A stretch of 64,000 bases of DNA. Origin: Acidobacteriota bacterium (GTDB taxonomy: Bacteria > Acidobacteriota > Vicinamibacteria > Vicinamibacterales > JAHECP01). Below the pieces are notes generated by a model. The model worked only from the letters and a program-made list of their open reading frames with translations, made no database searches and was not told the DNA's origin. Location: contig JAHECP010000012.1 in the NCBI GenBank assembly GCA_024641665.1, forward strand, positions 56 to 64,055. The letters are read 5' to 3'. Positions 53,605 through 56,430 of the stretch are shown piece after piece (position 1 is the stretch's first letter; every line of letters begins with the position of its first letter). The position numbers and the translations under genes are program-made.

Positions 53605-53868
53605 ATGATCCATCGACTCGGGCGGCTGATGCCCGTCCTCTTCGCGGTCCTCGTGGGAAGTGCGGCCTGTGGCCGCTAGGCGCCGCAGGCGCCGGTTGCC
53701 ACCAACGCACCGGCCGCGTCCGCGCCGGCGACGCCCGCAGCAACCACGCCCGCCACGCCGCCGCCGCTGCCCGACGACCTGCGGCCGATCGTCGAGACCT
53801 ACCGGAAGATCATCGTGCTCGTCGAGGACGAAGCCACGCTCTAGCCGGACGACCAGCGCCGGGCGGAA
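53605..53868 (+). other. In-frame upstream segment of the deacetylase-caspase ORF: lipoprotein signal peptide plus linker, interrupted by two TAG codons
   Basis: ATG 53605 encodes MIHRLGRLMPVLFAVLVGSAACGR, then TAG (53677-53679). An Ala/Pro/Thr-rich linker follows, ...IVETYRKIIVLVEDEATL, then TAG (53842-53844). The same frame then continues into the 853-codon ORF at 53869. Confidence 0.6.
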
Positions 53869-56430
53869 GTGGTCGGTCGCATCCTCTACCACGAGAACCA
53901 GCGGAGGCTGGCGGACCTGGCCGATGGTCTGCTCGCGGGGCTGTCCGGTACGCCGCCTGCGCTCGCCGCGCTCGAGGGGTTCCTCGCCGTCGTCGAGGAG
54001 CATCCGGAGCTGCACGACGCCGACAAGCTCGTCTTTCGCGACACGCTGGCCGAGGTCGCCGAGACGCTGCGGGCGACGCCGGCCGCCGGCGCGGCGATCG
54101 TCACGCGCGTGGAGGCCGACCAGGCGGCGCTCGCCGAAATCCAGGCGCTTTACGACGCCGAGATCCAGCGCATCTTCGGACGCTTTGAAACGCGCGGGAT
54201 GACGGTGCGCCGCGAGGCGTGGGAACGCTACGTGGCCCACTTGCGGACCCTGGTGAGCGCGGCGTCCATCCTCGAGGAGTACCGGTCCGAAGTCGCGGCG
54301 GTCGAGGCGCCGCGCCGCCGTCTGGCGGCATCGTCCGGGCCACCACTGGAAACGTCCGGGTTGGATCTTCCGGTCCGGACACTGGTTCTGACGTTCGACG
54401 ATGGCCCGCACCCGCGGTATACGGATCGAATCCTGGCCATCCTGAAGGAACAGGGCGTCAAGGCGGTCTTCTTCGAGGTCGGCGAGAACATCGGCCGGGC
54501 CACGCAGGGAGGCGGCCTGAGGGCGACAAGGGCCGCCTCGGCGAGCCGCCACGTCCGCGAGGCCGGGCACACGGTGGCCAACCACACGTACTCGCACGAG
54601 CTGCTGACGAAGCTGGCGGACAAGGGCGTCGCGGATCAGATCGATTGGACCGATCGCGTGCTCCGCCGCATCGTCGGAGCCGACGCGCCGGCGCTCTTCC
54701 GGCCGCCGTACGGCGCCGGCAGCGAGCGGGTACTGGCGGCGCTGGCCGCGCGCGCGAAGCAATCGGTGCTGTGGAACATCGACTCGAAGGACTGGGCCGA
54801 TCCCGTTCCGCTGTCGATTGCCAATCGTGTCATCCGCGGGATCGAAGGGGAGCGGCACGGGATCATCCTTTTTCACGACATCCAGGCACGCACGATCGAC
54901 GCGCTGCCGCTGGTGATCGAGACGGCGAAGGCCAAGGGGTACCGCTTCCTGGCGTGGGACGGCAGCGGTTTCGTGGACGAGACGCCGCCCCCGGTCCAGA
55001 AAGCGGCGCCGGAGCCACCGCCTCCGCCCGAACCGGAGCCCTACCGCCAGAGCTGGGCGGTGGTGGTCGGCATCGACGCCTACCAGCACTGGCCCCGCTT
55101 GAGCTACGCCGTCAACGACGCGCGGGCCATTCGCGAGCTGCTCGAGCGCAAGTTCCGCTTCCAGCCCGACCACATCACGATGCTCCTCAACGAGGAGGCT
55201 ACCCGGGAGCGGATTCTGGCCGCGCTGGGCGACGATCTGGCCAATCCCGCGAAGGTGACGCGCGACGACCGGGTGTTCGTGTTCTTCGCCGGCCATGGCG
55301 CGACGCGAGAGTTGCCGAGCGGCCGGGCGCTCGGCTACCTCGTGCCGGTGAACGCCGGCCTGGAGAGCTACCAGAGCCAGGCCATCTCGATGACGAACTT
55401 CCAGGACATCTCCGAGGCCCTGCCGGCCAAGCACGTGTTCTTCGTCACCGACGCCTGCTACGGCGGACTGGCGCTGACGCGCGGCGCAGGCCAGAACTAT
55501 CTGCGCGAGATGACGCGGCGCACGGCGCGCCAGATCCTGACGGCCGGCGGCGCCGACGAGCAGGTGACCGACAACGGCCCCAACGGTCATTCCATCTTCA
55601 CCTGGACGCTGATGCAGGGGCTCGAGGGCCGTGGCGACCTGAACGACGACGGGTTCATCACGGCGTCGGAGCTGGCGGCCTACGTGGGGCCCGTCGTGTC
55701 GTCGGTGTCGCGGCAGACCCCGGCGTTCGGCAGCCTCGCAGGCAGCGAAGGCGGCGAGTTCGTCTTCCAGCTCGATCACGAGGACGAGTTCCTGAGCGAC
55801 CTCTCCGGCCAACTCGACGAAGAGGCGATCCGGCTCAACGCCGAGCTCGAGCGTCTCGGGGGCGCGCCCTCCGCGCCGAAGGCGCCGACGGCCGCGACGT
55901 ACAACGACCGCGGGATGGCGCTCTTCCGCGAGAAGAAGTACGCCGAGGCGCTCGAGGCGTTCCAGCAGGCGGCGGCGCTGGCGCCATCGAGCGCGCTGAT
56001 GGCCAACAACGTCGGGTACATGCACTACAAGCTCGGGCAGCTCGAGCAGGCGGTGCGCTGGTTCGAGAAGACGATCCTGCTCGATCCCAACCGCGGGATT
56101 GCCTACGCGAACCTGGGCGACGCCTATCTGGGCCTCGGCCGGACCGCCGACGCGCGGCGGGTGTACGAGCAGTACCTGCAGCTGCAGCCCAACGCGAAGT
56201 ACGCCGACACCGTGCGGGCGAAGCTCGCGCAGCTGGGGAAGGGGACGCGGTGGCGCGGTTCCTTCGTCGGCGCGCGTCTTTCTCTAGACGAAGCTGCGCC
56301 TCACGTCAGTAACGGCGCCGCCTCGCACTTGTGTGCACCGTGTGCACCTAGTGCACTCTATGTCCGTGGCACGCTCCGTGCTTCCCCAGGTTTCATGGCT
56401 GCGACGGATCCGCAGGAATTCATCTCCTGA
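53869..56430 (+). CDS. Fusion protein: helical N-domain + polysaccharide deacetylase (NodB/CE4) + caspase-like peptidase C14 + TPR repeats
   Basis: NodB: LVLTFDDGPHPRYT, VANHTYSH, LFRPPYG (about 54375-54957). C14: WAVVVGIDAY, His in FFAGHG (55294-55296), Cys in TDACYGG (55456-55458). TPR: about 55899-56245. The start is the first GTG after the second TAG. The last ~60 codons are repeat-element sequence. Confidence 0.8.
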   Translation: MVGRILYHENQRRLADLADGLLAGLSGTPPALAALEGFLAVVEEHPELHDADKLVFRDTLAEVAETLRATPAAGAAIVTRVEADQAALAEIQALYDAEIQRIFGRFETRGMTVRREAWERYVAHLRTLVSAASILEEYRSEVAAVEAPRRRLAASSGPPLETSGLDLPVRTLVLTFDDGPHPRYTDRILAILKEQGVKAVFFEVGENIGRATQGGGLRATRAASASRHVREAGHTVANHTYSHELLTKLADKGVADQIDWTDRVLRRIVGADAPALFRPPYGAGSERVLAALAARAKQSVLWNIDSKDWADPVPLSIANRVIRGIEGERHGIILFHDIQARTIDALPLVIETAKAKGYRFLAWDGSGFVDETPPPVQKAAPEPPPPPEPEPYRQSWAVVVGIDAYQHWPRLSYAVNDARAIRELLERKFRFQPDHITMLLNEEATRERILAALGDDLANPAKVTRDDRVFVFFAGHGATRELPSGRALGYLVPVNAGLESYQSQAISMTNFQDISEALPAKHVFFVTDACYGGLALTRGAGQNYLREMTRRTARQILTAGGADEQVTDNGPNGHSIFTWTLMQGLEGRGDLNDDGFITASELAAYVGPVVSSVSRQTPAFGSLAGSEGGEFVFQLDHEDEFLSDLSGQLDEEAIRLNAELERLGGAPSAPKAPTAATYNDRGMALFREKKYAEALEAFQQAAALAPSSALMANNVGYMHYKLGQLEQAVRWFEKTILLDPNRGIAYANLGDAYLGLGRTADARRVYEQYLQLQPNAKYADTVRAKLAQLGKGTRWRGSFVGARLSLDEAAPHVSNGAASHLCAPCAPSALYVRGTLRASPGFMAATDPQEFIS
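56241..56357. repeat. GTGCAC-family element (E3), core plus right arm, overlapping the 3' end of the caspase-fusion ORF
   Basis: The 54-nt core at 56247-56300 differs at one position from 57312-57365. The right arm has GTGTGCACCGTGTGCACCTAGTGCAC. Confidence 0.8.

Follow-up and report, generated by a model that had tools for sequence, protein, structure and literature searches.

A gene of the deacetylase-metacaspase-TPR family, located in a 64,000-nt stretch of DNA (the window) from the metagenome-assembled genome of a Vicinamibacterales-like soil acidobacterium, is interrupted near its 5' end by two in-frame TAG codons. It is probably an ordinary pseudogene, that is, a recently inactivated copy of a gene of this family, residing in a strain-specific island.

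Two amber codons in one reading frame

The ATG at 53605 encodes MIHRLGRLMPVLFAVLVGSAAC GR, and the next codon in this frame, codon 25, is TAG. An Ala/Pro/Thr-rich stretch and LPDDLRPIVETYRKIIVLVEDEATL come after it, up to a second TAG at codon 80, and directly past this stop the frame goes on with PDDQRRAEVVGRILYHENQ. Translation bears out the first-pass annotation of this DNA, which had placed both TAGs (53677-53679 and 53842-53844) in the frame of the 853-codon ORF (GTG 53869 to TGA 56430, 853 aa) with no frameshift. A lipoprotein signal at ATG 53605 had also been claimed, and indeed the segment is a predicted lipoprotein signal peptide with a lipobox and its Cys: LFAVLVGSAAC matches the PROSITE PS51257-type lipobox pattern, which is matched by 25 of 101 homologues as well, and the nearest homologues share the signal-peptide layout (for example, P0253, ...AVAAVGCGRSQ). 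A codon-position GC pattern characteristic of coding DNA, with a GC3 of 0.83-0.97, begins at 53605 and continues across both TAGs. This pattern and the homologue matches given below agree with the early impression of an Ala/Pro/Thr linker and protein-like sequence between the TAGs, and the 264 nt 5' of GTG 53869 read as ancestral coding sequence. The features of the gene and its surroundings are collected in Table 1.

Table 1. Features of the interrupted gene and its surroundings (positions in the window)
Feature	Position	Strand	Remarks
Island holding the gene, 10.3 kb	47478..57764		Missing in a relative of 88-95% identity
Upstream HEAT-repeat lipoprotein gene	52757..53584	+	Ends 20 nt before ATG 53605
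Start codon and predicted lipoprotein signal peptide, MIHRLGRLMPVLFAVLVGSAAC	53605..53670	+	Lipobox Cys is codon 22
First in-frame TAG (TAG1), codon 25	53677..53679	+	In the variable linker, three residues past the lipobox Cys
Ala/Pro/Thr linker and first conserved helix, between the two stops	53680..53841	+	IVETYRKIIVL at 53788-53820
Second in-frame TAG (TAG2), codon 80	53842..53844	+	In frame with the 853-codon ORF
ORF as called from GTG, 853 aa	53869..56430	+	No signal peptide or first helix; ends in a 62-aa tail without homology
Polysaccharide deacetylase (NodB-type)	54370..54747	+	PF01522, E = 8e-30; TFDDG, NHTYSH, FRPPYG and LFHD intact
Caspase-like Peptidase_C14 domain	55051..55638	+	PF00656, E = 2e-17; His (FFAGHG) and Cys (DACYGG) present
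Junction AELERL/GGAPS, without a coiled-coil segment of ~30 aa (in-frame loss)	55840..55872	+	Segment conserved in 60 aligned homologues
TPR repeats	55891..56226	+	Homologues stop 0-4 residues from ...AKLAQLGKG (56244)
62-codon tail and TGA, no homologue	56245..56430	+	DNA from 56241 is a 5'-truncated copy of a ~115-nt palindromic repeat

The catalytic motifs are intact in both enzymatic domains and the GC3 of the gene is still 0.89; thus, either the 3' part is still used or any real decay has begun very recently. Proteins of about 100 kDa that contain PF01522, a caspase or metacaspase domain, and 1-3 TPRs have been described as 'Xanthomonas-type' metacaspases, an architecture that occurs in Xanthomonas, Xylella, Stenotrophomonas, and the acidobacterium Candidatus Solibacter usitatus (Asplund-Samuelsson et al. 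2012, PMC3501461). The window gene has the same domain order and the His-Cys dyad. Unlike those genes, it contains two TAGs and lacks the coiled-coil linker and the native stop. The window gene is best seen as a damaged member of a known family, related by descent to genes with a single uninterrupted ORF of ~900 aa that includes the signal/anchor and the YRKxIVL helix, and its architecture is not new. Read in this way, it carries little weight for biology at large, being one more decaying accessory gene of a known family in a metagenome-assembled genome.

Sense codons at both positions in the homologues

A total of 1643 database proteins match at E <= 1e-150; the best 120 full-length matches are typically 885-915 aa long. 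In more than 100 homologues of full length (~900 aa), one finds the signal/anchor, an Ala/Pro linker, and a conserved IVxxYRKIIVL helix in a single open frame. In the window gene this helix falls between the two TAGs, a region in which R67, I70, V71, and L72 are nearly invariant (alignment A1). Even when taken by themselves, the 88 upstream residues match the corresponding positions at the N-termini of intact homologues, with pairwise E values of 5e-12 (P0253, residues 55-85) and 5e-11 (P0255, residues 14-86). The first-pass annotation had allowed that orthologues might start at the internal GTG, with the upstream 264 nt not conserved as protein. This proved false; the orthologues include the upstream part, conserved as coding sequence, and consequently the TAGs really interrupt a gene. 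The comparison of the TAG columns that had been recommended reveals sense residues at both positions in all 101 full-length homologues. Likewise, the 29 homologous loci examined are all open, without a stop, from the hydrophobic N-terminus through YRKxIVL, and recoding that recurs across the family was rejected on this ground. Among about 130 homologues or loci in all, not one shares either TAG.

At TAG1, the nearest homologues read C-G-R-S-Q, making TCG or CAG the likely ancestor of codon 25; TAGGCGCCG CAGGCGCCG, which flank this TAG, form a tandem repeat (8/9), and this would favour CAG. The TAG2 column in the 101 full-length homologues is P32/D23/S18/E12. Here the nearest homologues read L-E-P, and P0255 has EATLEPDD where the window has EATL*PDD, so that a change of GAG to TAG would be the likeliest and GAG is the most likely ancestor of codon 80. 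Coulondre and colleagues are said to have traced, in 1978, amber hotspots in lacI to the deamination of 5-methylcytosine at CCWGG. If TAG1 arose from CAG, then CGC-CAG-G would have contained CCAGG, with its inner C changed to T. However, the nearest homologues suggest either Ser or Gln at this site, leaving the ancestor uncertain, and TAG2 lies outside any CCWGG. A Dcm-type deamination was thus rejected as the source of both stops, since it is plausible for TAG1 only, and then only from CAG, with TAG2 most likely derived from GAG.

The window sequence is the most divergent of its set. Its best identity is 63% in the protein search and no higher than 56% in the scans of genome and metagenome contigs, a distance too great for a dN/dS calculation with even the nearest relative. 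The exact 853-aa product is present in the protein collection as the NCBI record only, in a cluster with a single member, and homologues span just 92-93% of its length. With a lone cluster member and nothing above 63% identity, the collection can contain no version of the protein with the stops repaired. Look-ups of the exact 853-aa, 743-aa, and HEAT products matched no contig.

Further lesions and the accessory island

The ORF extends 62 aa beyond the end point of every one of the 17 homologues that reach the C-terminus, although the TPRs are present. Because the truncated palindromic repeat begins at 56241, the native stop codon is absent. The copy of the repeat within the tail has no hairpin fold (z = -1.35), unlike the full copy at 57296-57410, for which the folding energy is -65.6 kcal/mol (z = -5.1). 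Highly conserved columns are kept at 229 of 240 positions, the lowest number among 61 sequences, and the substitutions include L441A and D585G. The linker deletion, the lost native stop, and the substitutions at conserved positions are absent from the first-pass annotation. Loss of the linker and the stop-less fusion to the repeat are kinds of lesion that base-call errors do not make. Because no other member diverges as far as the window sequence, the deletion and the odd substitutions could be specific to its lineage rather than a sign of decay, and so could the lost stop.

The tetranucleotide CTAG is avoided in the window (29 observed vs 59 expected), and where GC is 70%, conserved coding sequence contains no CTAGs other than those at the two TAG sites. 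This scarcity fits recent changes, not long-standing codons. Two CTAGs are also found within the tail.

Besides this gene, the island contains four pilin-like genes, the HEAT lipoprotein gene, a Gp49/HigB-type toxin gene with an XRE antitoxin gene, and a gene for a 94-aa product. Gene decay is common in accessory islands. The HEAT-repeat lipoprotein gene is the probable operon partner of the interrupted gene. A conserved operon context was considered and rejected, as P0254, the nearest homologue with a long contig, has different neighbours.

Four explanations had been listed in the first-pass annotation with no choice among them, and the best supported of them, strengthened by the extra lesions, is a very recent double nonsense pseudogene. 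The ancestor would have been a widespread gene for a ~900-aa exported protein in which a lipoprotein signal or membrane anchor and an Ala/Pro linker precede a helical N-domain, a NodB-type polysaccharide deacetylase, a C14 caspase-like domain, and TPRs. Two single-base substitutions would then have converted sense codons to TAG, at codon 25 from CAG or TCG and at codon 80 from GAG. Translation from ATG 53605 would end after 24 residues, consisting of the signal peptide plus Cys-Gly-Arg, and any product made from GTG 53869, having neither the export signal nor the first conserved helix, would probably fail to reach its site of action. The conserved coiled-coil linker would also have been lost from this copy, as would the native stop where the 3' end was fused to the truncated palindromic repeat. 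We infer that function has been lost and that the lesions exist as alleles in the organism and are not errors of the consensus. As in ordinary nonsense pseudogenes (those annotated with an 'internal stop'), the alignments place the stops inside sequence homologous to intact orthologues, apparent extra lesions are present, and the setting is an accessory island. The difference is that neither stop lies beyond codon 80, and the 2.5 kb 3' of them is open with its motifs intact; consequently, either the event is very recent or this remaining part continues to be tolerated.

Other readings of the stops

The alternative that survives best, though it is unlikely, is a consensus artefact. The TAGs would then be sequencing or assembly errors, or minority alleles of co-existing strains that the assembler joined into a mosaic, and the real 5' end would be intact. 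The contig, of 64,090 nt, does belong to a metagenome-assembled genome. In addition, contigs from the Logan assembly of run SRR12825371 match 37,614-52,764 and 56,257-57,340 exactly and leave 52,764-56,257 between them uncovered, and neither this gene nor the adjacent HEAT gene has a protein in that assembly. The break at 52,764 occurs without any repeat in the window. Coverage may thus be low, or the strains heterogeneous (polymorphic), precisely in this 3.5-kb module, which leaves room for consensus errors. Furthermore, if the ancestral codons were TCG and GAG, both changes would be G:C to T:A, the class that arises from oxidative damage in library preparation. However, 16.2 kb of flanking contig is 100% identical to the independent Logan assembly, with zero mismatches, indicating that the base accuracy of the contig is high, and it would be remarkable for two errors within 165 nt both to create stops. 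Moreover, the loss of the linker and the fusion to the repeat without a stop are structural and mark the copy as already damaged.

Internal restart, a distinctly improbable reading, accepts the nonsense alleles as real and has translation begin at GTG 53869, or 3' to it, to yield a cytoplasmic, non-lipidated deacetylase-caspase-TPR protein. Restart past an early amber codon is known from the rpoS(Am) alleles of E. coli. Here, the GTG is 24 nt after TAG2, and the 853-codon frame past TAG2 is open, with high GC3 and intact deacetylase and caspase motifs. However, GGGCGGAA abuts the GTG directly and would serve poorly as a ribosome-binding site, its spacing being too short. The product would lack both the signal/anchor that is present in every homologue and the nearly invariant YRKIIVL helix, would bear a 62-aa junk tail, and would have a start that is found at this position in none of the best 120 full-length matches. 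Nothing beyond the existence of the GTG has come to speak for this option of the first-pass annotation, which would drop the signal peptide and the conserved first helix. For annotation, the 853-aa product from GTG 53869 is best viewed as a truncated gene-calling artefact, and the locus is to be treated as a pseudogene or a possible consensus error, not as a cytoplasmic deacetylase-caspase.

Amber readthrough or suppression, in which the UAGs would be decoded by a suppressor tRNA, pyrrolysine, or a near-cognate tRNA to give a low, perhaps regulated, level of the full lipoprotein, is the least credible of the readings. The same stop codon does occur twice with the frame kept, and one survey describes in-frame stops as widespread in bacterial genes that are often still under purifying selection (PMC7918605). 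Programmed readthrough requires that a stop be conserved among relatives and that the extension past it be under purifying selection; these stops are unique to this copy, which carries other damage as well, and two leaky stops in series would multiply to a very small yield. It is scarcely probable, too, that the TAGs are tolerated as a strong expression throttle, with low readthrough or an unlinked amber suppressor tRNA maintaining a trickle of the full lipoprotein, a role that the same survey proposes for conserved in-frame stops in bacteria (PMC7918605). If true, readthrough here would amount to natural double-amber throttling of an exported caspase-like protein, but no evidence in this analysis points there, and readthrough gained no support among the options first listed.

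Pyrrolysine decoding of UAG, which relies on pylT, pylS, and pylBCD together with methylamine methyltransferase genes, is described in archaea and some bacteria (PMC7593587, PMC8318568). The likeness extends to an in-frame TAG within an otherwise coding gene. Pyl systems, however, possess pyl genes, and their TAG occupies a conserved site in genes of the mtmB/mtbB/mttB type, whereas the window gene belongs to an unrelated family and its TAGs, sense codons in the 101 homologues and stops in 0 of the 29 loci, are unique to one copy. No tRNA gene was found in the 64-kb window, and no pyl-like gene among the window proteins scanned. The gene at 31,539-32,843, which encodes the sole radical-SAM protein in the window, was considered as PylB and rejected, since the enzyme is of the AmmeMemoRadiSam type.

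Genome-wide reassignment of TAG is reported, as an alternative code, for some phages and some archaea (bioRxiv 10.1101/2024.09.30.615893), and it shares with the present case a TAG within coding sequence. Reassigned genomes, however, have many in-frame TAGs and no termination at TAG. In the window, TAG terminates 13 of the 36 approximate gene calls, often as TAG-G, which is also the context of TAG1. When the window is scanned for stops that have coding signal both before and after them, antisense frames excluded, this gene alone is found. Such reassignment is thus unlikely, as the first-pass annotation had argued from the many other genes in the window that end in TAG. A pair of same-frame ORFs, 23,220-24,794 (ending in TAG) and 24,795-26,378, was considered as a second case of readthrough. 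Coding signal is absent just past this TAG and the aminotransferase domain of the downstream ORF begins at its residue 163, indicating that the two are separate genes.

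Two in-frame TAG codons and the upstream segment

The combination of deacetylase, metacaspase and TPR parts defines an already known family, an architecture described in Xanthomonas, Xylella, Stenotrophomonas and the acidobacterium Candidatus Solibacter usitatus (PMC3501461). Reading of the window and translation of positions 53,605-56,430 give exactly the arrangement proposed in the first-pass annotation, with a lipoprotein signal, TAG1, a linker, TAG2 and the ORF all in one frame. From ATG 53,605, MIHRLGRLMPVLFAVLVGSAAC-GR is encoded, followed directly by TAG1 (53,677-79, codon 25). 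An Ala/Pro/Thr-rich stretch and then LPDDLRPIVETYRKIIVLVEDEATL separate it from TAG2 (53,842-44, codon 80), after which the frame continues with PDDQRRAEVVGRILYHENQ... and into the called ORF (GTG 53,869 to 56,430, 853 aa). All six frames of this 70%-GC DNA hold long open frames, making openness alone weak evidence. Gene-like codon-position GC (GC3 0.83-0.97, with lower GC2) begins at 53,605 and crosses both TAGs, and the N-terminus from this ATG satisfies the PROSITE-type lipobox rule; thus, the interrupted frame goes beyond what chance would produce.

Used as a protein query, the 853-aa ORF returns 1643 proteins at E <= 1e-150, the best being 63% identical to it. Their typical length, 885-915 aa, fits the 880 aa of the read-through ORF as far as ...AKLAQLGKG and not the truncated ORF. 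When the first 463 read-through residues are used, hundreds of homologues are found, many with 90-97% query coverage, and R67, I70, V71, and L72 of the motif IVxxYRKIIVL, which lies between the two TAGs, are nearly invariant in the alignment. Even the 88 upstream residues alone align with two of the closest full-length homologues, matching P0253 over residues 55-85 (E = 5e-12) and P0255 over residues 14-86 (E = 5e-11); in the latter, EATLEPDD is paired with EATL*PDD of the window. The first-pass annotation had allowed that the upstream DNA might not be part of the gene. Instead, homologues carry this segment, and in-frame upstream walks through genome and metagenome collections reveal a single open frame from the hydrophobic N-terminus through the YRK motif at 29 of 29 homologous loci, with a stop between these two features at none (0/29). 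The segment therefore belongs to the gene, and the TAGs, unique to the window copy, break an ancestral coding sequence.

Within 101 full-length homologues, the TAG2 column reads P32/D23/S18/E12, and because the closest sequences have L-E-P, GAG to TAG would be the likeliest change. TAG1 occupies a variable linker, three residues past the lipobox Cys, where the closest homologues read C-G-R-S-Q. Comparison suggests TCG or CAG as its ancestor, and a local 8/9 tandem, TAGGCGCCG-CAGGCGCCG, favours CAG.

Further lesions in the same copy

Every one of the 17 homologues extending to the C-terminus stops within 0-4 residues of the ...AKLAQLGKG position; the window ORF extends 62 residues further, into a tail covered by no homologue. 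From 56,241, the DNA of this tail is a repeat copy whose second copy is found at 57,306 (95% identity over 60 nt, with about 115 nt that can be aligned). The full copy, 57,296-57,410, is predicted to form a long hairpin (-65.6 kcal/mol, z = -5.1), and the gene-fused copy, without the left arm, is predicted not to form it (z = -1.35). Since the tail is a truncated copy of a palindromic repeat, the native stop was lost where the gene joins this element.

The window gene is also missing a segment of about 30 aa, a coiled coil (R..A.KR.RN.QL....A) that links the caspase part to the TPRs and is present in 60 of the 60 full-length homologues aligned. Of 240 alignment columns with at least 95% conservation it keeps 229, the lowest of 61 sequences, with substitutions that include L441A and D585G; against a smaller, earlier homologue set, 134 of 140 conserved columns were kept. 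Both enzymatic domains still have their catalytic motifs. Together, these features point to a gene copy that is decaying, and only recently. Some may be lineage-specific, because the window sequence is the most divergent of the set. A real, recent pseudogene is the probable explanation. The finding is ordinary, and its main use is as an annotation caveat.

Consensus quality and the reading of TAG

The main rival reading, that the TAGs come from consensus errors or a strain mosaic, is unlikely. An independent Logan assembly of SRR12825371 is identical to the window across 37,614-52,764 and 56,257-57,340; with zero mismatches in these flanks, the contig is accurate wherever a comparison is possible. 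A 41-nt exact repeat explains the break at 56,257. However, the 15,151-nt identical contig ends at 52,764, 8 nt into the upstream HEAT-repeat lipoprotein gene, and no repeat in the window accounts for this break. The Logan assembly contains no protein for either this gene or the deacetylase-caspase gene, both of which are found in the protein collection from the NCBI record only, whose 64,090-nt contig the window essentially represents. The unexplained break and the two missing proteins suggest that coverage is lower, or that strains differ, in precisely this 3.5-kb module. The structural lesions argue that the window copy is truly damaged.

Real stops bypassed by a functional internal restart are a distinctly improbable account of the gene.

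TAG reassignment was considered unlikely at first pass, and the window indeed gives no sign that TAG is read differently. Other genes end in TAG in 13 of 36 approximate gene calls, many in the TAG-G context of TAG1; no tRNA gene lies within the 64-kb window, and no pyl-like gene is present among the window proteins scanned. (A single radical-SAM protein, taken as a pyl-like candidate, was rejected as an AmmeMemoRadiSam enzyme.) In a six-frame scan, with antisense-frame hits (low GC1) set aside, the only stop having coding-type composition on both sides is that at 53,842. CTAG is two-fold depleted in the whole window (29 observed versus about 59 expected from trinucleotide frequencies), and the 70%-GC part (40 kb) has only ten, nearly confined to intergenic DNA and stop codons; besides the two amber sites, the remaining location is the non-homologous tail of the ORF. 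Given this depletion and the location of the others outside conserved coding sequence, the two amber sites look like newcomers, not settled codons. A published survey (PMC7918605) makes the case that bacterial genes can retain in-frame stops under selection, which leaves a small door to tolerated stops, but nothing in this analysis supports them, and readthrough or suppression is very unlikely.

The surrounding island and neighbouring genes

L138, a contig of a close relative (ENA ERZ25039495 contig_45499; 88-95% nt identity), is collinear with the window except that it skips from 47,478 to 57,764, and its CLC channel gene directly adjoins FtsH-ClpB. Because L138 is without it, this interval is a 10.3-kb island, with palindromic GTGCAC-rich repeats marking its borders and separating its modules. 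These element sites show strong clustering of GTGCAC, and the full copy is predicted to fold as a hairpin of about 115 nt.

Features of the island (window coordinates)
Feature	Position	Remarks
Island	47,478-57,764	
Four type-IV-pilin-like genes		N_methyl motif, PilX_N
HEAT-repeat lipoprotein gene	52,757-53,584 (+)	ends 20 nt 5' of ATG 53,605
Broken deacetylase-caspase gene	53,605-56,430	
Gp49/HigB-type toxin and XRE antitoxin pair	56,575-57,278	
94-aa gene		
GTGCAC-rich palindromic (REP/MITE-like) intergenic elements	47,414-47,443; 52,302-52,580; 56,241-56,355; 57,283-57,433; 57,763-57,781	

The toxin-antitoxin pair is flanked by direct copies of the ~115-nt element (56,241-56,355 and 57,306-57,430; exact over 41 nt, 95% over 60 nt), the left one being that to which the deacetylase-caspase gene is fused at its 3' end. 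The pair resembles a cassette that was inserted, or duplicated, between repeats.

Downstream of the gene, ClpB and FtsH are encoded on the opposite strand; among named sequences, those closest to this ClpB, at about 80% identity, come from Vicinamibacterales (Acidobacteriota). A contig of a more distant relative (GCA_040960095.1, JBFOMS010001603.1) carries on one strand, at 2,952-9,329, ClpB-FtsH-M14 peptidase-deacetylase (526 aa)-CarboxypepD_reg, in which the deacetylase homologue is without the caspase domain. The M14/CarboxypepD_reg slot in the window (41,101-41,311) is an empty 210-nt spacer. The broken island copy is the only deacetylase homologue in the window, and the neighbours of P0254, the closest homologue on a long contig, are unrelated to those of the window.

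Two tandem CarboxypepD_reg-repeat genes (37,663-39,312 and 39,455-41,101, minus strand, within 37,306-41,232) share about 78% DNA identity and are missing from L138. Where L138 (5,170-7,511) matches the 1010-aa M14 peptidase gene of the window, two genes of 441 and 339 aa are called, with no Pfam hits, possibly through a frameshift or an assembly break. Finally, positions 1-24,000 have 59-65% GC (mostly 61-63%) versus 67-74% for 24,000-64,000, a sharp step in composition, and TAG is the terminator of 8 of 12 genes before the step versus 5 of 24 after it. The low-GC part may represent acquired DNA or a chimeric join; it contains two genes for TonB-type outer-membrane barrels, along with their partner genes, and also encodes hydrolases and one transporter each of the MFS and Nramp types.
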